NCBI GenBank assembly: GCA_041649155.1
Contig: JBAZNP010000001.1
Span: 558,869 to 622,868, forward strand
Origin: Patescibacteria group bacterium
GTDB lineage: Bacteria > Patescibacteriota > UBA1384 > XYA2-FULL-43-10 > 1-14-0-10-43-13
Direction: 5' to 3'
DNA length: 64,000 nucleotides
Under the pieces are notes generated by a model that saw only the letters and a program-made list of their open reading frames with translations, did no database searches and was not told the DNA's origin. Both the position numbers and the translations under genes were made by a program. This document shows positions 6,031-57,900 of this stretch, piece by piece (positions within the stretch are counted from its first letter, which is position 1; the number at the start of each line of letters is the position of its first letter).

Positions 6031-6046
6031 TCTGGAAATTTCAATT

Positions 6047-6115
6047 GTCATTCCAGACTTGATCTGGAATCTATATAAATAGTAACTGGATCCTGAATCA
6101 AGTTCAGGATGACGC
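6047..6115. mobile_element. MITE-like element (GTCATTCCAGACTTGATCTGGAAT-CTATATAAATAGTAACTGG-ATCCTGAATCAAGTTCAGGATGAC) directly upstream of fba
   Basis: Two perfect 8-bp-stem hairpins with an AT-rich TATATAAAT spacer. Termini GTCAT/ATGAC are inverted. Confidence 0.8.
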
Positions 6116-6949: not shown

Positions 6950-6960
6950 ATTTTCGTCTT

Positions 6961-7082
6961 GTCATCCCGAGCAGAGTGTAACGGAGTCGAGAGATCTTGT
7001 GATAGTTAATTCATTAAAAGATTTCCCTGCCTGCCGGCAGGCAGGTCCGCCCCTTCGACAAAGCTCAGGGAGTCGAAATGAC
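6961..7082. mobile_element. MITE-like element, long variant in inverse orientation, with nested 20-bp palindrome (7026-7045)
   Basis: GTCATCCCGAGCAGAGTGTAACGGAGTCGAGAGATC...[CCTGCCTGCCGGCAGGCAGG]...CTTCGACAAAGCTCAGGGAGTCGAAATGAC. Halves are reverse complements of those at 11306-11410. Confidence 0.75.
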
Positions 7083-7108
7083 AAAATAATAATAATTCAT
7101 ATAAATTT

Positions 7109-8122: not shown

Positions 8123-8166
8123 TAAATTAGTTGTAATTTTTCAGTAAATCAGCTGTCACTCTTCAT

Positions 8167-8235
8167 GTCATCCCCGTGAAGACGGGGATCCAAGATAGTA
8201 ATGGATTAGTAGATTCCCGTCTGCGCGGGAATGAC
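8167..8235. mobile_element. MITE-like element variant (GTCATCCCCGTGAAGACGGGGATC...GATTCCCGTCTGCGCGGGAATGAC)
   Basis: Two hairpins with GTCAT/ATGAC termini. Same family as the insertion inside hydB. Confidence 0.7.
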
Positions 8236-9319: not shown

Positions 9320-9417
9320 GCAGTAAGTCGATAAGCGTGTAAACATGTAAGCAGTAGGGATAAAAATATCAGCTCTAAAGAGTTGATATTTTTTATGGTA
9401 ATCGTTTACTCTTAGTT

Positions 9418-9504
9418 GTCATTTCGACTCCTTGGCCTTGTCCAAGGGTGGAGAAATCCTATAAATAAACCAATAGAAGATCCCTCCACTTCGGTCGGGA
9501 TGAC
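9418..9504. mobile_element. MITE-like element, long variant (GTCATTTCGACTCCTTGGCCTTGTCCAAGGGTGGAGAAATC-CTATAAATAAACCAATAGAA-GATCCCTCCACTTCGGTCGGGATGAC)
   Basis: Same architecture as 11306-11410. Confidence 0.75.
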
Positions 9505-9937: not shown

Positions 9938-10032
9938 ATATCGGATTTTTTTTGCTAAGCTAATTAGGTCAGAATCAAAAATTATGAATCTGGAATAATG
10001 AATTTTAATAATAAATTGTTTGGCATCTAATA

Positions 10033-10077
10033 GGATCCTGAAACAAGTTCAGGATGACACTATTAGTTTGTCATGAC
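10033..10077. mobile_element. Partial MITE-like element (GGATCCTGAAACAAGTTCAGGATGAC...GTCATGAC) immediately upstream of tig
   Basis: Second-hairpin half of the 6047-6115 type. Confidence 0.55.
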
Positions 10078-11289: not shown

Positions 11290-11305
11290 ATCGTTACTGC
11301 TGGCT

Positions 11306-11410
11306 GTCATTCCGACTCCTTGGCTTTGTTCAAGGGTGGAGGAATCTTACAAATTAAATTGAAAACTATTATAAGATCCCTCGACTCCGCTACGCTCTGC
11401 TCGGGATGAC
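11306..11410. mobile_element. MITE-like element, long variant, upstream of the MFS transporter
   Basis: GTCATTCCGACTCCTTGGCTTTGTTCAAGGGTGGAGGAATC...GATCCCTCGACTCCGCTACGCTCTGCTCGGGATGAC. Confidence 0.75.
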
Positions 11411-12729: not shown

Positions 12730-12801
12730 TAAATCAAAAATTCTAATGTCTAATTTCAAATTATTCTAAACAAGCACCAGCCAATAAGGTAATGGTTCAC
12801 T

Positions 12802-12870
12802 GTTATCCCAGACTTGATCTGGGATCCATATAAATAATTACTGGATCCTCGGGTCAAGCCTGAGGATGAC
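12802..12870. mobile_element. MITE-like element upstream of clpP
   Basis: GTTATCCCAGACTTGATCTGGGATCCATATAAATAATTACTGGATCCTCGGGTCAAGCCTGAGGATGAC. Confidence 0.75.
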
Positions 12871-20045: not shown

Positions 20046-20170
20046 TAAGGAGAATCGTCCATCAATTCAATGATGGTTCGATACGGTCGATCGTCTGATA
20101 TTCGTTCTTGAATATCGAGACGCAAATCCTATGCTAAACCTTAGCATAGGTGCGTACTTTATCACTATTT

Positions 20171-20245
20171 AGTTGCAAAAGAGCTAAAAACAACAGACCT
20201 GCCTGCCGGCAGGCAGGTTACAGATCGTACGAATAATACGAATGC
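20171..20245 (+). repeat. Direct repeat copy 1, flanking the 16S-23S interval (TAAAAACAACAGA + 20-bp palindrome + TACAGATCGTACGAATAATACGAAT)
   Basis: About 85% identical to 41788-41866 in the same orientation. Confidence 0.8.
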
Positions 20246-20565
20246 TGTATGAAAAAGCCACTCGAAAGAGTGATTTTTTGTTATAATAAAAACAGAGGTG
20301 ATGATTATGCGGAAGTTAAGAAGACAGAATATGGGGGAAAGAAGGGGTTTTGCTACTCTATTGACTCCTCTGCGCGATAGAGTGGATAATAGCCGAAAAC
20401 CACATTCTAGAGGTATTCGCTTCAGGAGAAGTTTACTTCATGGTCATCATGTGCGAAGCGGCAGTACTCTCGGCTCGGGCGTCTCTTCTCGCCCGAGCTT
20501 ATTTTTGCAAAATTTAACGTTCTTCGAGTTTAAATTAATTCTTAGGATAAAAGATATAGCAGTCT

Positions 20566-20603
20566 ATCTTAGGTTTACATACGGCCGTTGCAAAATCTAA
20601 GAT
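20566..20603. repeat. 38-bp repeat copy A: ATCTTAG-GTTTACATACGGCCGTTGCAAAAT-CTAAGAT
   Basis: 7-bp inverted arms around a 24-nt core. Identical copy at 21188-21225. Near-identical copy at 52548-52585, with 6 substitutions in the first 10 nt of the core. Confidence 0.8.
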
Positions 20604-20621: not shown

Positions 20622-21194
20622 ATGGTTAGATATTCAAAAAAATATGGAGATATGCTTGAAAATCCATTTACTTGGGGGCTGGAAATTGCATTGGGATATC
20701 TTTTAAAATTGGGAAAAAATTATGTCTATAAAGCACGTGACAGCAAAGCGCTATATGAAGAGTTAAACAACGCTAGCGATCATCAGCTTTCGCCTCGCCA
20801 AGTTTCAAATATGATTTATCAGTTGAAAAATAGTAATTATATTGAAATTTGTGACGAAGAAGGGGAAAAATCAATTAAGTTAACCAATAAAGCAAAAATA
20901 AAATTAGTTGAAAAAATAATTGAAGAGGAACCCAAAGATAACAAATATCGTTTTGTCTCTTTTGATATCCCTGAACGATTACATCATAGGCGTGATAAGT
21001 TTCGTCGAACAATAAAAAGGATGGGATTTCGTCAAATCCAACAGAGTTTATGGGTTACGGATAAAAATATAGGGGAAATGGTCGATATTGCAGCCCAGGA
21101 ATTTGAAGTTGAAGAGTATGTCGCCTACATTGTTTCTGAAAAATCAAACATTGATCTGCACATTAAGAAAACATTGCATGTGGAGCTATCTTAG
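20622..21194 (+). CDS. PaaX-like regulator: N-terminal winged-helix plus C-terminal Cas2-fold domain
   Basis: C-terminal YRFVSFDIPERLHHRRDKFRRTIKRMGFRQIQQSLWV matches the YDI...R+K..K.L...G.R.Q.SV(F/W) Cas2/PaaX_C signature. N-terminal region is wHTH-like. Flanked by 38-bp repeat copies A and B; the stop codon TAG lies inside copy B. Confidence 0.6.
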   Translation: MVRYSKKYGDMLENPFTWGLEIALGYLLKLGKNYVYKARDSKALYEELNNASDHQLSPRQVSNMIYQLKNSNYIEICDEEGEKSIKLTNKAKIKLVEKIIEEEPKDNKYRFVSFDIPERLHHRRDKFRRTIKRMGFRQIQQSLWVTDKNIGEMVDIAAQEFEVEEYVAYIVSEKSNIDLHIKKTLHVELS

Positions 21195-21225
21195 GTTTAC
21201 ATACGGCCGTTGCAAAATCTAAGAT
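21188..21225. repeat. 38-bp repeat copy B
   Basis: Identical to copy A. Overlaps the stop of the PaaX-like gene. Confidence 0.8.
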
Positions 21226-34194: not shown

Positions 34195-34199
34195 ATCAT

Positions 34200-34287
34200 G
34201 TCATTCCGTACTTGATACGGAATCTATACAAATAGTTTCTGGATCCCAGATACAAGCCTGCCTACCGGCAGGCAGGTCTGGGATGAC
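34200..34287. mobile_element. MITE-like element (GTCATTCC...GGGATGAC) with nested 20-bp palindrome. Its 3' terminus supplies the ATG of the downstream pilin gene.
   Basis: GTCATTCCGTACTTGATACGGAATCTATACAAATAGTTTCTGGATCCCAGATACAAG-[GCCTGCCTACCGGCAGGCAGG]-TCTGGGATGAC. Confidence 0.75.
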
Positions 34288-36274: not shown

Positions 36275-36742
36275 AACAACAGATGACGAATAATACAGAT
36301 AATACGAATGACAGAAAAGTAGAACAGCTGATTTATAAGGAGTTGTCTTATAAGCTAGTTGGTCTTGCGTATGAAGTATGCAACACTCTTGGCGAAGGAT
36401 TAAAAGAAGAAGTATATAAAGATGCTTATGCGTTATTACTTGATAAAGAAAAAATTCCTTATGCGAAAGAGTATTATTATTCAATAAAGATAAGAGATGA
36501 AATCATTGCAAAAAGATTCTTTGATTTTTTGATTGATGATAAAATAATAGTTGAATTCAAAGTGGGCGGAAAAGCATATTTTAGTTCTTATAAACAATTA
36601 TTGGAATATCTTAAATCCAGTAAGTATAAATTAGGGTTGATAATCAGGTTTTCGTTAGATGGTGTAAAGATAAAGCGTATCCCAAATTTGTATTAATCAA
36701 CTTAAAAATTAGTATTATTTGTCTTATTAGTAATCTGTTGTT
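36275..36742. mobile_element. TIR-bounded cassette carrying the GxxExxY gene
   Basis: Head AACAACAGATGACGAATAATACAGATAATAC. Tail revcomp AACAACAGATTACTAATAAGACAAATAATAC. Imperfect ~30-bp TIRs. An internally deleted ~90-bp derivative lies at 56588-56677. Confidence 0.65.
36283..36696 (+). CDS. GxxExxY family protein
   Basis: LVGLAYEVCNTLGEGLKEEVYKDAYALLL...IIVEFKVGGKAYFSSYKQLLEYLKSSKYKLGLIIRF matches the GxxExxY/PD-(D/E)xK-like family pattern (GPGFLExxY ... DhhV(E)hK ... LLNYLKxxGLKLGLLINF). Confidence 0.75.
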   Translation: MTNNTDNTNDRKVEQLIYKELSYKLVGLAYEVCNTLGEGLKEEVYKDAYALLLDKEKIPYAKEYYYSIKIRDEIIAKRFFDFLIDDKIIVEFKVGGKAYFSSYKQLLEYLKSSKYKLGLIIRFSLDGVKIKRIPNLY

Positions 36743-37577: not shown

Positions 37578-37823
37578 CTAGTCAGAGACTAATAGATGTT
37601 TATTTCTAAATGCCTTGCCAGAGGAGGATTTTAGATAATCCTCAAATCTTGCGGCTAACTCTTTTGTTTCAAACGCCGCATACCACGCTACTTTGACAGG
37701 TCTAAATTTTGAAGTATGCGGAACACCACCAGATTGATGTTTTCCAAATCGCGCCGAGAGATCCTTTGTTGATCCAGCGTAAAAAGTATTATTTGATAAT
37801 TCCAACAAATAAGTATAGTACAT
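37578..37823 (-). CDS. GIY-YIG nuclease superfamily protein (small, YhbQ-like)
   Basis: YYTYLLELSNNTFYAGSTKDLSARFGKHQSGG...ELAARFEDYLKS matches GIY-x10-YVG...R...H...G...E of GIY-YIG domains. Confidence 0.7.
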   Translation of the reverse strand: MYYTYLLELSNNTFYAGSTKDLSARFGKHQSGGVPHTSKFRPVKVAWYAAFETKELAARFEDYLKSSSGKAFRNKHLLVSD

Positions 37824-37973
37824 GCATTTATTATACAAAAAAGTCCAACTTCACTCAAATCAAAGCACATTTGAGCTACGCTGGACAAACTTCTTGCTTG
37901 CCATCCAGAAACACTTAACTGTTTTGAATGGTTTGGCTTGCCAAGCGAAGCCGATGTTCGTGAAGGCGAAGTT

Positions 37974-38049
37974 TGGTGGACCCGACAGGATTCGAACCTG
38001 CGACATCCTCGTTGCAAACGAGGCGCTCTACCAACTGAGCTACGGGCCC
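37974..38049 (-). tRNA. tRNA-Ala (anticodon UGC), CCA encoded
   Basis: Reverse complement GGGCCCGTAGCTCAGTTGGTAGAGCGCCTCGTTTGCAACGAGGATGTCGCAGGTTCGAATCCTGTCGGGTCCACCA. G3:U70 pair. Anticodon loop TTTGCAA. Confidence 0.9.
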
Positions 38050-40755: not shown

Positions 40756-40938
40756 TTAACGATTTTCCGATTTCTTGCCTTCTTCAATAAGCTCCTTGAC
40801 TCTTTGTCCGCCTTTGGTTCCAATCTCAGAATAGAAGCCTCGTCCATATCTCTGGCTCGTGGTTTTTCCGCCCTTCTTGCCACCTTTTCTGCCAGCTTCC
40901 TGTACGCTCATTTGACCCTTGTTATCTTTCATCTGCAT
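40756..40938 (-). CDS. KGG-repeat stress-induced protein (GsiB/YciG-like)
   Basis: MSVQEAGRKGGKKGGKTTSQRYGRGFYSEIGTKGG matches the KGG repeat. Confidence 0.65.
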   Translation of the reverse strand: MQMKDNKGQMSVQEAGRKGGKKGGKTTSQRYGRGFYSEIGTKGGQRVKELIEEGKKSENR

Positions 40939-40975
40939 TTAAAATTCACCTCTTTTCAATTATCCGTTTGAAAAT

Positions 40976-41245
40976 TTACCATTCGTCATATTCACTTTTG
41001 TTTTTTCCTTTGTTCCGTTTCTTATTTTCAGCTTTCTCTCCCTTTTTTATAAGATCCCGTACTTTTTGCCCGCCCTTAGTGCCTATCTCATGATAGAACT
41101 CCGGTCCGTATTCACGACTTGTGGCTCGACCTCCTTTAGTACCTATCTCATGATAGAACTCCGGTCCGTATTCACGACTTGTTGTCCGGCCGCCTTTTTG
41201 TCCTGCTTCCTGTACGGACATTTTAATCTTGCCTTTTTCTGCCAT
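40976..41245 (-). CDS. KGG-repeat stress-induced protein with internal 60-bp tandem duplication
   Basis: TSREYGPEFYHEIGTKGG appears twice, encoded by 41073-41132 and 41133-41192. Confidence 0.65.
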   Translation of the reverse strand: MAEKGKIKMSVQEAGQKGGRTTSREYGPEFYHEIGTKGGRATSREYGPEFYHEIGTKGGQKVRDLIKKGEKAENKKRNKGKNKSEYDEW

Positions 41246-41296
41246 TTTTATCCACCTTGTTCCTAATTAATTATTAAAATAATTAAGTCTAAAAAT

Positions 41297-41503
41297 TTAC
41301 ATGTTCTTGCTTCTTCCACGTCTCTTTCCTCCTTCGCTTTCTTTTCCTTTTTCGATAAGGTCCCTAACTCGGTGTCCGCCTTTAGTACCTATATCATGAT
41401 AAAATTCTGGTCCATGTTCTCGGCTTGTGGTTTGACCTCCTTTTTTGCCGGCCTCCTGTACTGTCATTTGGCCCTTTTTTCCTCGCATTTGCATAATCTT
41501 CAC
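41297..41503 (-). CDS. KGG-repeat stress-induced protein
   Basis: MTVQEAGKKGGQTTSREHGPEFYHDIGTKGGHRVRDL. Confidence 0.65.
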   Translation of the reverse strand: MKIMQMRGKKGQMTVQEAGKKGGQTTSREHGPEFYHDIGTKGGHRVRDLIEKGKESEGGKRRGRSKNM

Positions 41504-41633: not shown

Positions 41634-41788
41634 TTGACATCTTCAAAATAATTAGTTAAGATCTCTTTAGAAACTCTAAAAGAGGTCTATGGTCAATCAC
41701 TACACCAATGAGAGGGGGACAAGCGGATGAGATAAAATAGGGGTATTTTATTTTTTTATCTCAATTATCCGCTGCGGCGGTTTTTTTT
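41634..41788 (+). ncRNA. Candidate small RNA: TTGACA-17-TAAGAT promoter to CCGCTGCGGCGG-T8 terminator (~120 nt transcript)
   Basis: Consensus -35/-10 at 41634-41662. Internal hairpin GAGATAAAA...TTTTATCTC. Intrinsic terminator at 41769-41788. No ORF. Confidence 0.3.
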
Positions 41789-41866
41789 GTCGCAAAAAGC
41801 ATAAAAACAACAGACCTGCCTGCCGGTAGGCAGGTGACAAATCGTACAGATAATACAGATTACGAA
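41788..41866 (+). repeat. Direct repeat copy 2, flanking the 16S-23S interval (with nested palindrome)
   Basis: GCAAAAAGCATAAAAACAACAGA-CCTGCCTGCCGGTAGGCAGG-TGACAAATCGTACAGATAATACAGATTACGAAT. Compare 20171-20245. Confidence 0.8.
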
Positions 41867-51686: not shown

Positions 51687-51691
51687 ATATC

Positions 51692-51758
51692 GTCATCCCA
51701 GACTTGATCTGGGATCCAGTTACTATTTATATAGATTCCGTATCAAGTACGGAATGAC
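51692..51758. mobile_element. MITE-like element (GTCATCCCAGACTTGATCTGGGAT...TACGGAATGAC) directly upstream of recO
   Basis: Two 8-bp-stem hairpins separated by an AT-rich spacer (revcomp GGAATCTATATAAATAGTAACTGG), as at 6047-6115. Confidence 0.75.
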
Positions 51759-52507: not shown

Positions 52508-52547
52508 TTTTCATTTAAACTTATTTTAATCGTATATATGGATAATT

Positions 52548-52585
52548 ATCTTAGTATTCAATATGGCCGTTGCAAAATCTAAGAT
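52548..52585. repeat. 38-bp repeat copy C
   Basis: ATCTTAG-TATTCAATATGGCCGTTGCAAAAT-CTAAGAT. Compare copies A and B. Confidence 0.75.
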
Positions 52586-54354: not shown

Positions 54355-55839
54355 ATGGCAAAAGAAAATAACAATGCCGCATCCGACAAAGTCGGAGCGG
54401 GCACCCCTGCTTATACTGAAAGCGGAATGCGAGGCAAGATGGAAAAGATTATCTCTTTATGTAAAAGACGTGGGTTCGTCTATCCTGCTTCGGAGATCTA
54501 CGGTGGTTTTGCAAATGCCTTTGACTATGGTCCGCTTGGTGCGCAATTAAAGAAAAATGTTAAAGATGTCTGGTGGCAGAAGTTTGTAACTGAGCGCGAT
54601 GACATGGTCGGGCTTGACTCGGCAATTATTCAAAATCCAAAAACATGGGAAGCTTCAGGGCATTTGAAATCTTTTTCTGATCCTCTTGTAGAATGTAAAA
54701 AATGCCATAAACGTTTCCGTGAAGACCATATTCAAGAATTGTTGGAAAAGATTGGTGCTGCTGCTGACGCGGTGACGGGATCCCTGATCAAGTCCGGGAT
54801 GACAGAAGGGTTATCACAGGAACAAAGAGATATGTTGTTTTGCAAAGGCGCAGAAGAGCATGATTTTACGGAAGCGAAGAATTTTAATCTTATGTTTAAG
54901 ACTTTTATAGGCGTGACGGAAGATTCGGCTTCAACTGCATATTTGCGGCCGGAAACTGCTCAGGGTATATTTTTAAATTTTAAAAATGTTCTGCAGTCAA
55001 GCCGTGTCAAAATTCCTTTTGGTATTGCCCAGATCGGAAAAGCTTTCCGCAACGAAATTACTCCGGGAAATTTTACCTTTAGAACAAGAGAATTTGAACA
55101 GTCTGAGATTGAATATTTTATCAAACCAGACAAAGAAGAGTCGCAGAAAACTTTTGACTACTGGATAAAGATCTGGAAAGAGTTCTTCTCTGATTTGGGT
55201 ATTAAAGATGAAAATCTTACCATTAGAGCGCATGACAAAGAGGAACTTTCTCATTATTCAACTGGTACGTCAGACGTAGAGTATAACTTTCCGTTTGGAG
55301 TATCAGAACTTGCCGGTGTAGCCCAAAGAACTGATTTTGATTTAAAACAGCACGAAAAATATTCCGGACAGGATGTAAAATATTTTGATGAGACTACCGG
55401 TGAAAAATTTATTCCTTATGTGGTTGAACCAACGATGGGTGTTGATCGAGCTGCCTTAGCATTTTTAGTAGATGCTTATGATGAATCAGACGGAACTGAT
55501 GGCAGGGCAGAAGGGGAGGTCACACTTCATCTACATCCAAAACTAGCTCCTATTAAAATCGCAGTGTTCCCGCTGGTAAAAAAAGAAGGTCTGCCAGAAA
55601 TAGCCAAGGAAATAGTTTCTAATTTGCGAAAAGCAGGAATCGAAACTTTTTATGATGAAAGCGGATCAGTTGGTAAGAGATATCGAAGACAGGATGAAAT
55701 TGGCACTCCATGGTGCGTTACAATTGATTTTGACTCGATAAAAGACAAAACAGTGACAGTCAGAGATAGAGATACGATGAAGCAGGAGAGGATGAAAATT
55801 ACAGAAGTAATTGGTTTTGTGCAGGGAAAATTAATCTAA
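54355..55839 (+). CDS. glyQS: Glycine--tRNA ligase, alpha2 (homodimeric, GlyQS) type
   Basis: Class II aaRS motifs. N-terminal RRGFVYPASEIYGG...FDYGPLG characteristic of alpha2-type GlyRS. C-terminal anticodon-binding domain. Confidence 0.85.
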   Translation: MAKENNNAASDKVGAGTPAYTESGMRGKMEKIISLCKRRGFVYPASEIYGGFANAFDYGPLGAQLKKNVKDVWWQKFVTERDDMVGLDSAIIQNPKTWEASGHLKSFSDPLVECKKCHKRFREDHIQELLEKIGAAADAVTGSLIKSGMTEGLSQEQRDMLFCKGAEEHDFTEAKNFNLMFKTFIGVTEDSASTAYLRPETAQGIFLNFKNVLQSSRVKIPFGIAQIGKAFRNEITPGNFTFRTREFEQSEIEYFIKPDKEESQKTFDYWIKIWKEFFSDLGIKDENLTIRAHDKEELSHYSTGTSDVEYNFPFGVSELAGVAQRTDFDLKQHEKYSGQDVKYFDETTGEKFIPYVVEPTMGVDRAALAFLVDAYDESDGTDGRAEGEVTLHLHPKLAPIKIAVFPLVKKEGLPEIAKEIVSNLRKAGIETFYDESGSVGKRYRRQDEIGTPWCVTIDFDSIKDKTVTVRDRDTMKQERMKITEVIGFVQGKLI

Positions 55840-56450: not shown

Positions 56451-56587
56451 AATTATCGTTTTCTGTACTGCATAAATTAGCATTTACTATTATTGTCCAC
56501 AAATTTGTGGAGAGAAGGGTTGTTGACGATGGGGCAAGTAAGCACTAAACTGGTAAGTAGTGGGTGACAGTGGGAAAAGGTGGGAGA

Positions 56588-56677
56588 ACAACAGATGACG
56601 AATTATACAGATAATACAAATATTGGAATTCAAATTCGTCATTAGTATTATTAGTTTTTATTAGTAATCTGTAGTTT
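56588..56677. mobile_element. Internally deleted (MITE-like) derivative of the GxxExxY TIR cassette
   Basis: Head AACAACAGATGACGAATTATACAGATAATACAAAT plus tail TAGTATTATTAGTTTTTATTAGTAATCTGTAGTT. Same ends as 36275-36742 but only ~90 bp long. Encodes the remnant MTNYTDNTNIGIQIRH*. Confidence 0.6.
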
Positions 56678-57111: not shown

Positions 57112-57113
57112 GA

Positions 57114-57170
57114 AACAACAGATTACAGATCATACGAATAATACAGATTACAAATTGGACAGATAATATT
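57114..57170. repeat. Solo TIR-like copy of the GxxExxY-cassette end (AACAACAGATTACAGATCATACGAATAATACAGATTACAAAT), immediately after the mraZ stop
   Basis: Related to the heads at 36275 and 56588 and to the rRNA-flanking repeats. Confidence 0.55.
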
Positions 57171-57344
57171 AATAATGAATATCGCATCTTAACAATTTTA
57201 TTTAAATAAGTAGCCAACAAACACCTTGTGAGTTCATTTAGAAGCTGTACGAACAGCACACGGAGGAGGGTTCCTATTCATAGAATGGGAACAAGCGAAG
57301 GAGGGCATCATCCTCCTACACTCAGGTTTGGTTCGAGGACTACG

Positions 57345-57364
57345 CCTGCCTGCCGGCAGGCAGG
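57345..57364. repeat. 20-bp perfect palindrome CCTGCCTGCCGGCAGGCAGG (solo copy)
   Basis: Same palindrome at 7026-7045, 20198-20217, 34256-34276 (1 mismatch) and 41815-41834 (1 mismatch). Confidence 0.85.
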
Positions 57365-57546
57365 TCCACGCAGCCAAAACTTCGTTTTGGAGGATTTCAC
57401 GGCAAAACTATCAAAAAATAGTCGAGCTCAAAAACAAAAACTTTATTTTTATAGGCACGTTCTGGGTGCATAAAACAAAAAAGTTGGCTACTGATTTTAA
57501 TAAAATTGTAAATCTTTGTTTTTTTAATTTCTTATTGGGAGGGAAA

Positions 57547-57900
57547 GTGGGTAGAGTTCTAACAATCACAAACAGCAGTCACAATATTGCAGGTGTCCGA
57601 AAAAAGACAATTGGAAGAGAAATTGTTATTGGGCCCAATGCAATCAAATTTGTAGCAATTTCAATATTTGCTATATTGGCAATCGTTTATTTAACCCAAT
57701 CAACTTCGGGGGCTAATAGAAGTGTCAAGGTTCAGGATTTAGACGATAAAAAAACACAATTACAAATGCAAAAAGAGCGTCTCGAAGTTGAACAGACTAG
57801 ATTAAAATCTCTCAAAGAAATTGATAGCACGGTTGAAAATGAAAAAAATACTTTAGAACCAGCATCGAATGTGGACAATATAAGTGGAACTGTTCATTAG
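57547..57900 (+). CDS. ftsL: FtsL/DivIC-like cell-division protein (single TM + coiled coil)
   Basis: GTG start after GGGAGGGA. TM helix AIKFVAISIFAILAIVYL then a coiled-coil (QLQMQKERLEVEQTRLKSLKEI). Sits between mraZ and ftsI. Confidence 0.45.
   Translation: MGRVLTITNSSHNIAGVRKKTIGREIVIGPNAIKFVAISIFAILAIVYLTQSTSGANRSVKVQDLDDKKTQLQMQKERLEVEQTRLKSLKEIDSTVENEKNTLEPASNVDNISGTVH

Follow-up and report, generated by a model that had tools for sequence, protein, structure and literature searches.

Among the described systems, the closest to the element analysed here are REP sequences and their RAYT enzymes (including REPINs and BIMEs), i.e. short GC-rich hairpins that are extragenic and multicopy. 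REPs are lineage-specific, and RAYT/REP pairs are normally species-specific. IS200/IS605 elements ('peel and paste') and their palindrome-associated derivatives recognize hairpins and do not duplicate their target, and their insertion is strand-specific, on the 3' side of a defined base. The IS200/IS605 elements need two distinct ends, left and right, each tens of nucleotides long; their target is a 4-5-nt sequence, preferably in the lagging-strand template. Rickettsia palindromic elements (RPEs), 100-150 bp long and restricted to Rickettsia and close relatives, are palindromic repeats present in frame in functional protein genes and in RNA genes. GC-rich palindromes are also scattered in the AT-rich genomes of organelles (yeast mitochondrial GC clusters, Neurospora PstI palindromes, and sponge, placozoan and Volvox repeats), where they insert into spacers, into each other and occasionally into genes in frame. 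We know of no transposase for these organellar hairpins; the yeast M-type GC clusters have been reported with a short target repeat. MITEs are likewise small, non-autonomous and dispersed. REPs are defined by a conserved GTAG or CGTC tetranucleotide at one hairpin end, and they have been documented nested inside other palindromes and in frame within ORFs, including tRNA synthetase genes (PMC3733652).

The window, that is, the whole 64-kb stretch of DNA that we analysed, contains exactly five matches to the sequence CCTGCCTGCCGGCAGGCAGG, hereafter the 20-mer, when up to three mismatches are allowed. In 100 dinucleotide-preserving shuffles there was no match, and none is expected by chance in the window. 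The MraZ relatives place the source of the window among CPR bacteria, in the vicinity of Candidatus Berkelbacteria. The first-pass annotation had reported five copies of this perfect palindrome. All five are present, but the third starts at 34257 rather than 34256, and only three are perfect, the other two having one mismatch each. These two variants (G8>A at 34257 and C13>T at 41815) correspond to one change seen from opposite strands. All five copies in the 64 kb are intergenic, as follows (^ marks the insertion point):

7026..7045, minus strand: palindrome copy 1, perfect, in a GTCAT-type MITE, flanked on the minus strand by GGCGGA and GAAATC (A^G junction)
20198..20217, no strand assigned (A^T junction symmetric): palindrome copy 2, perfect, splits AACAACAGA^TTAC, 150 nt downstream of the 16S rRNA gene
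34257..34276, minus strand: palindrome copy 3, T-variant on minus (G8>A on plus), in the second-hairpin loop of a two-hairpin MITE, ...CCCAGATACAAG^palindrome^TCTGGG
41815..41834, plus strand: palindrome copy 4, T-variant on plus (C13>T), splits AACAACAGA^TGAC, 400 nt upstream of the 23S rRNA gene
57345..57364, minus strand: palindrome copy 5, perfect, in the mraZ-ftsL spacer, where it forms the tip of a longer hairpin

The 20-mer has the layout (CCTG)2CC.GG(CAGG)2 and forms a hairpin whose 8-bp stem is capped by a CCGG loop, with a DNA folding energy of -8.0 kcal/mol (-7.0 when the variant is folded as its T-strand). Its G+C content of 75%, compared with ~36% for the window (about 34-39% outside the rRNA genes), is indeed strikingly different from that of the host, as initially remarked. 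It has the characteristics of REP-type hairpins (about 20-40 nt, GC-rich, imperfect palindrome, stable), its 20 nt being at the lower size limit. As with REPs, its copies may be numerous and largely extragenic, all five of the window being intergenic and ~10% of the sites listed for other genomes lying in genes; its common variant contains GTAG, and some copies are found in REP arrays beside RayT genes. In contrast, the perfect form has neither GTAG nor CGTC, and the GTAG of the T-variant is inside the 3' arm, not at the foot of the hairpin. Nearly all copies, including the five of the window, are singletons and not inverted doublets as in REPINs. There is also no RAYT gene in the window, and the 20-mer spans many phyla (see below). 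The 20-mer behaves like a REP, yet it lacks two features that define REPs, the terminal tag and the doublet organization.

Only copies 2 and 4, which lie in a 72-nt direct repeat, have flanks that resemble each other. The five sites thus do not have the identical flanks of one larger duplicated segment, the finding that the first-pass annotation had named as contrary to independent mobility. Three families of host repeats in the window each have both filled and empty members, and the difference between them is exactly 20 nt. The host repeats and their unbroken counterparts are the following:

6958..7086, no strand assigned: MITE hosting copy 1, termini TTGTCAT...ATGACAA
34197..34287, no strand assigned: MITE hosting copy 3, with palindrome-free members at 6044-6113, 12799-12868, 51689-51758, 10028-10058 and 54773-54803
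20168..20239, plus strand: 72-nt direct repeat holding copy 2, 85% identity to 41785-41856, its core a copy of the cassette TIR
41785..41856, plus strand: other copy of the 72-nt direct repeat, with copy 4 inside, 85% identity to 20168-20239
36275..36742, plus strand: reference 'empty' cassette of 468 bp, with a PDDEXK_3 nuclease-family gene between 35-nt TIRs (36275-36309 and 36708-36742), TIR AACAACAGATGAC...
56587..56633, plus strand: unbroken cassette-TIR motif (AACAACAGATGACGAATTATAC...)
57114..57160, plus strand: unbroken cassette-TIR motif (AACAACAGATTACAGATCATAC...), directly after the mraZ stop codon

Copies 1 and 3 are located inside hairpins of GTCAT...ATGAC MITEs, and copies 2 and 4 interrupt TIR-like repeats at AACAACAGA^T(T/G)AC, both as described in the first-pass annotation. 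Read on the minus strand, the filled site at 7026 is GGGGCGGA-(20-mer)-GAAATC, and the empty paralogues of this MITE are GGGTGGA^GAAATC (9406-9469) and GGGTGGA^GGAATC (11294-11357). Five copies of the GTCAT...ATGAC MITE have a second hairpin of the form arm-(A/T)CAAG-arm, and the one at 34257 has arm-TACAAG-(20-mer)-arm instead. Finally, the motif AACAACAGAT(G/T)AC... is unbroken at 36275, 56587 and 57114, and at 20189 and 41806 it is broken after AACAACAGA by exactly the 20-mer. The sequence split at 20198 and 41815 is the 35-nt TIR of the 468-bp PDDEXK_3 cassette, and thus the term 'TIR-like' was apt.

No target base is doubled at any filled/empty pair in the window, and no larger element was found with the same ends as the 20-mer, whereas MITEs have TIRs that match those of a parent insertion sequence. 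The 20-mer thus differs from MITEs in having no TIRs distinct from its body, no target duplication and no recognizable parent IS, and it inserts into MITEs. The 20-mer is a separate insert of defined length. The palindrome very probably moves independently of the repeats that it occupies, as was first proposed, because its empty paralogues differ by 20 nt, an orthologous site is filled in one genome and empty in its relatives (the L047 locus, see below), and hundreds of unrelated contexts are occupied across phyla. This reading is based on sequence comparisons.

Some copies may nevertheless have spread as passengers, since one MITE loop position is occupied both in the window and in a relative (L252), and since copies 2 and 4 are in the 72-nt repeat; these two may represent one insertion followed by duplication of the 72-nt segment. 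Copy 3 may have come with its MITE, and thus the five copies of the window may record three to five insertions. In its extreme form, the passenger explanation would have the palindrome enter a few host repeats once and later spread only through those repeats or by segmental duplication. The 72-nt direct repeat with copies 2 and 4, the TACAAG-palindrome variant of the MITE loop common to the window and L252, the orthologous copy 5 in L254 and two copies of a phage contig (L148) with the same flank CCCGTAG^GGGCGGCACAATCTA would all fit. However, three unrelated host families in a single window have empty members, more than 150 unrelated flanks were seen across phyla, and there are insertions in unique sequence, i.e. 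in TrpRS, FtsK and ScpB genes. As a complete explanation it is already largely refuted, and we regard it as very unlikely.

The host repeats have features of their own. The TIRs of the cassette at 36275-36742 are 86% complementary, and copies of the TIR are also present at 20189, 41806, 56587 and 57114, pointing to a family of small mobile cassettes with solo ends. In the GTCAT...ATGAC two-hairpin MITEs (6044-6113, 12799-12868, 34197-34287, 51689-51758 and 8160-8235), the loops are constant (CTTGA / TCAAG) and the stems vary with full compensation; near-identical hairpins were found in a Bdellovibrionales MAG (L012). A single hairpin of this family, at 54773-54803, is within the long ORF 54355-55839, which by synteny with relatives probably codes for prolyl-tRNA synthetase, and it may be an in-frame repeat insertion. 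A 40-nt repeat is present at 20564-20603 and 21186-21225, where it brackets a PaaX/Cas2-like ORF (20622-21194), and again 31 kb away at 52546-52585; two of these copies are identical and the third is 85% identical.

Copies 2 and 4 are near rRNA genes. The 16S and 23S-5S rRNA genes (18585-45411) are ~22 kb apart, with genes for NUDIX, iPGM, Ddl, CsrA, pilins and others in between. The interval between 16S and 23S harbours tRNA-Ile(GAT) and two tRNA-Ala genes on the opposite strand and is bounded by the 72-nt direct repeat (20168-20239 / 41785-41856). Just upstream of the 23S region, three tandem units of 260-306 nt (40775-41477) look, on the minus strand, like repeated small ORFs beginning MS(V/T)QEAG(K/R)KGG. 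On the minus strand at 20197-20218 and 41814-41835, the palindrome together with TCTGTTGTTTTT is terminator-like, facing away from 23S and toward 16S, and copies 2 and 4 with TCTGTTGTTTTT may incidentally insulate against antisense transcription. Scores as an intrinsic terminator are confined to the minus strand at these two copies, due to the host motif, and the other flanks have no T-run.

These two sites are relevant to the possibility that the 20-mer is a selected cis-acting site, recruited for use rather than mobile: the operator of a conserved dimeric protein, or an RNA hairpin that stabilizes, processes or terminates transcripts. The perfect dyad, a length typical for sites of dimeric proteins, the strong conservation of the sequence and the terminator-like scores of copies 2 and 4 with TCTGTTGTTTTT beside the rRNA genes are in keeping with such a role. 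However, the T-tract tail is found only at two sites of the window, the position and orientation of the 20-mer relative to genes are not constant (8 sites with and 10 against flanking transcription), and copies are present inside coding regions, tRNA remnants, other repeats and one another. No protein family recurs nearby, and there is no match to an Rfam family. We therefore consider a selected cis-acting site improbable, at slightly less than one chance in ten.

Copy 5, near the mraZ/ftsL gap, had been described as solo. Rather, a longer hairpin of the mraZ-ftsL spacer has copy 5 at its tip. The site of copy 5 reads GGA^C-GTAG-TCC on the minus strand, i.e. within a small GGAC-GTA-GTCC hairpin. 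The closest relative found, whose MraZ is 90% identical, has a palindrome at the same place (L254); this orthologous copy is a T-variant on the minus strand of copy 5. In more distant relatives, the whole segment around copy 5 is absent, and one of them has two copies elsewhere. A segment of the spacer is conserved among CPR relatives (window 57112-57620, L252 10433-10900, L254 1410-1880 and L255 10433-10830). This segment is closed by a long-range stem (AGTAGCCAAC ... GTTGGCTRCT) and contains CCACGGAGGAGGG / GGAGGG as conserved blocks. It has no Rfam match and may be an undescribed structured RNA.

We scanned 596 Gb of sequence, with one genome per species, for the 20-mer and its position-8/13 variants. 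It was found in at least 120 genomic stretches with unrelated flanks and locus G+C contents of 26-72%, including those of cultured isolates and closed genomes. At even base composition, we estimate that roughly 0.5-2 matches would occur by chance in 596 Gb. The carriers span at least ten phyla. Among the matches listed, the loci belong to Bacteroidota (41, several from cultured isolates), CPR (30), Delta-/Bdellovibrio-type bacteria (11), Planctomycetota/PVC (9), Omnitrophota (8), Gammaproteobacteria (8), Nitrospirota (3), Chloroflexi (2) and Ignavibacteria (2). In addition, 48 stretches of viral contigs carry the 20-mer, and one viral contig of 29.5 kb that encodes a large terminase has at least six copies. 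The two copies of the phage contig L148 have the common flank mentioned above.

Among the matches listed, 63% of the copies are perfect, ~36% have a single change at position 8 or 13, and three are compensated doubles. The T-variant makes up 50% of the listed Bacteroidota copies versus 23% of those of CPR. To our knowledge, the occurrence of one identical sequence across phyla is unlike any known REP family. RPEs also differ from the 20-mer in this respect, the latter being 20-21 nt long and present in CPR, Bacteroidota and other phyla, and so do the organellar GC hairpins, which are organelle-borne, have other sequences, are usually longer and include none common to distant hosts. Literature searches with the 20-mer, its 12-mer halves and the LPAGRQ peptide (see below) returned no relevant paper, and topic searches gave only general work on REPs and MITEs and on organelles. 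Rfam 15 gave no match at any copy of the window at the gathering threshold, and none around copy 5 with E-values up to 1.

Approximately one tenth of the sites among the matches listed lie in long ORFs. There the insert is always in frame, in a 21-nt version, and it is almost always read as xLPAGRQx. Comparison of one TrpRS with a solved structure (PDB 2a4m) shows seven additional residues and no more, GLPAGRQ, corresponding to 21 nt or the 20-mer plus a G. Further genic insertions affect FtsK, ScpB, RfbB (a nested double) and a histidine kinase. We also considered whether bypass or splicing might rescue a frameshifting 20-nt insert. Nothing points to this, since removal of the 20 nt restores no long ORFs in low-G+C loci and since the genic copies are in frame as 21 nt.

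The in-frame 21-nt form of the genic copies reflects natural selection and not an artefact. This bears on the idea that the 20-mer arises de novo in each lineage, through replication slippage, or a switch of template, at (CCTG)n/(CAGG)n tracts, or that it is a sequencing or assembly artefact. Its layout of CCTG and CAGG units and the few copies with an additional CAGG or CCTG would be compatible with slippage. However, there are no isolated half-sites or precursor tracts in the window, the same 20-nt length and sequence are found in hundreds of places, and the 20-mer is present in isolates and in assemblies from many platforms. We regard such an origin as extremely unlikely.

tRNA sequences are another recurrent location. 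In five cases, an intact tRNA copy supplies the unbroken sequence, and the insertion is of exactly 20 nt, after A or G. Most tRNA matches are partial duplicate copies beside an intact gene, and we rejected tRNA genes as functional hosts of the 20-mer on this basis. A viral contig (L152 2230-2330) encodes an otherwise intact tRNA-Met(CAT) with the palindrome in the variable loop (AGG^TC), which would convert it to a tRNA with a long variable arm. Another locus (L021 3960-4225) has a complete tRNA-Met with short inverted repeat flanks, apparently nested in a tRNA-like gene with the palindrome in the D-arm.

The first-pass annotation had asked whether insertion sites are always TA-like or inside hairpins, and neither is the case. 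The junctions are not TA-like: a purine precedes the insert and G or T follows it (G^G, G^T, A^G and A^T). With the palindrome deleted and 60 nt folded, the junction is in a loop at 27.7% of 184 sites versus 28.9% of 920 control positions. Hairpin tips are therefore not a general target, and the MITE loop, a terminator in L111 and self-nesting are anecdotal cases. Insertions are enriched where arrays of short tandem 'words' begin or end (9.3% of sites versus 2.1% of controls, p = 2e-6), and the 9% of sites flanked by direct repeats are in such pre-existing arrays. Some copies of the 20-mer are inserted in other copies, at CCG^G, immediately 5' to the GTAG of a T-variant; GTAG is enriched at junctions, mostly through this self-nesting.

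The single-change variants provide an orientation to the otherwise symmetric palindrome. We wrote each position-8/13 variant as CCTGCCTGCCGGTAGGCAGG (the T-variant, C13>T, which creates GTAG), at 63 sites. The preceding base is G at 45 sites, A at 16, C at one and T at one, i.e. a purine in 61 of 63, and the following base is G at 34, T at 22, C at seven and A at none. The junction types that differ from their own reverse complements are biased 50:4 toward G^G, G^T and A^G (p = 4e-11). As to the perfect copies, 77 of 83 obey the flank rule in at least one orientation, compared with 75% expected.

The marked strand is not associated with GC skew, a crude proxy for the replication strand (25 of 53 positive, p = 0.79), or with the direction of flanking transcription, agreeing with it at eight sites and opposing it at 10. 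Thus, the polarity is a property of the insertion process itself. In the variants, the marked strand has a G.T pair and the other strand an A.C mismatch. Because the G.T pairing exists only on the strand that follows the flank rule, the transposing form would most likely be a single-stranded DNA hairpin, a view that we favour slightly over its alternatives. The absence of target duplication and the strand-specific joining recall IS200/IS605, but the 20-mer is one whole hairpin, its target is approximately one purine followed by G or T, and it has no GC-skew bias.

We looked for enzymes that could mobilize such a hairpin. In an all-against-all clustering of the ORFs of 120 listed loci, no family of neighbouring genes was present in more than eight loci. 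Y1 transposases (PF01797) were found in four Bacteroidota loci, a family that one source labels 'REP element-mobilizing transposase RayT'. In Chitinophagaceae/Ferruginibacter, T-variants are inside GTA-loop REP hairpins beside PF01797 RayT genes (L047 and L258) or inside such a gene (L013). In L047, the T-variant is inside the REP hairpin GTCCCRTAGGGAC directly upstream of the RayT-type gene, and the orthologous site is empty in four Chitinophagaceae/Ferruginibacter relatives (L256, L258, L260 and L263). In L258, it is inside GTGGCGTAGCCAC, 260 nt upstream of the RayT gene, and in L013, the 20-mer interrupts the Y1-like gene.

In the L047 and L258 arrays, however, the 20-mer is a guest inside other REPs rather than the main flanking REP. 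Of approximately eight independently sampled RayT loci, only one carries the 20-mer and seven do not. No Y1 gene is present in the 64-kb window or in the CPR loci examined, a small sample in which one gene per genome could escape. The RAYT reading is also weakened because one 20-mer occurs in many phyla whereas RAYT/REP pairs are normally species-specific, and because there is no GC-skew bias, unlike for IS200/IS605. We therefore propose a Y1/RAYT-type enzyme only tentatively.

A GIY-YIG gene of the window had been put forward as another candidate, at 37578-37823. The gene is real and has slightly different coordinates:

37578..37838, minus strand: small GIY-YIG nuclease gene, 3' of tRNA-Ala(TGC), no palindrome within 3 kb

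In palindrome-bearing sequence, six of seven GIY-YIG genes are at most 131 nt from a copy. The six have the same architecture, in which a partial tRNA copy with the palindrome on the 5' side is followed by the GIY-YIG gene and then an intact tRNA gene without a palindrome. In contrast, only one of 80 GIY-YIG loci sampled independently of the palindrome holds the 20-mer, and we did not retain GIY-YIG as the cognate enzyme. In approximately 35 of these 80 loci, small GIY-YIG genes are beside tRNA genes on the same strand (see window 37578-38049), and several loci have the order partial 5' tRNA copy, GIY-YIG gene and intact tRNA (the set of sites comprises the window, L052, L163, L025, L093, L213, L217 and L183). 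This arrangement looks like a tRNA-targeting mobile cassette, of which we found no description.

Loops of partial tRNA copies also contain clean 20-nt hairpin inserts of other sequences, with an 8-bp stem and a 4-nt loop (L213 ~1890-1990, L217 ~1080-1160 and L183 1-110). Examples are GCCACGTC-ATCC-GACGTGGC, GCCCCGGC-GGAT-GCCGGGGC and GCCCTATC-ATTC-GATAGGGC. The 20-mer may thus be one member of a size-defined class of hairpins.

The main rival of a transposase is the capture of excised hairpins at nuclease-made nicks. Structure-specific nucleases, small GIY-YIG/Slx1-like or others, would cut the foot of the hairpin, and the host would ligate the released 20-nt hairpins into nicks, with no dedicated transposase. 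This would account for the absent target duplication and the broad host range. The proximity of six of seven GIY-YIG genes to a copy, always with a partial tRNA copy upstream, is consistent with it, and the 20-nt hairpins of other sequences in the same tRNA remnants suggest a rule of size or shape rather than of sequence. However, the 20-mer is present in only one of the 80 loci sampled blind to the palindrome and is absent within 3 kb of the GIY-YIG gene of the window. Ligation of a symmetric hairpin does not obviously predict a strong strand polarity, and the prevalence of one exact sequence across phyla favours sequence recognition. Capture at nicks appears unlikely to us, if less so than the other alternatives.

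Two further candidates were rejected. Iterated HMM searches for the PDDEXK_3 nuclease identified four genes in all fetched sequence, none of them near a copy. A serine-recombinase model (IS607-like) with a GG core, worked by hand, predicts junctions that differ from those of L025.

Considering these data together, we are evenly balanced between acceptance and doubt for the overall reading that we prefer, in which the 20-mer is a REP-like, non-autonomous hairpin element moved as single-stranded DNA, with a Y1/RAYT-type protein as the leading candidate enzyme. It would be copied into new sites as exactly 20 nt, in one orientation and without target-site duplication, and the element-bearing strand would be attached 3' to a purine, in most cases G, with G or T on its other side. 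The enzyme would work in trans, not being encoded by the 20-mer, and a Y1 (HUH) transposase of the IS200/RAYT type would be the leading candidate. Selection would operate after insertion: copies would persist in spacers, other repeats and tRNA remnants, and within genes only in-frame 21-nt versions that add LPAGRQ would do so.

More speculatively, the 20-mer could be the smallest mobile DNA yet described, i.e. a single-stranded hairpin transposon of 20 nt whose exact sequence is kept in at least 10 phyla and in phages. It would be part of a wider class of 20-nt hairpins, moved by broad HUH/Y1 enzymes or by an unrecognized structure-specific activity, and able to add a heptapeptide to essential proteins.

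If the reading that we prefer is correct, one 20-base sequence has been copied across much of the bacterial tree and its phages, leaving no footprint beyond itself. This would be hard to square with lineage-specific REP/RAYT systems and would imply an unusually promiscuous single-strand transposase or an unknown route of insertion, to which the strand polarity offers a direct handle. The 20-mer would also account for the short LPAGRQ insertions of conserved proteins, for tRNA remnants that are interrupted and for some of the repeat mosaics at which metagenome assemblies break. As it is easy to search for, it may be used as a tracer of horizontal exchange and recent insertion activity in groups that are uncultured, for instance CPR bacteria.
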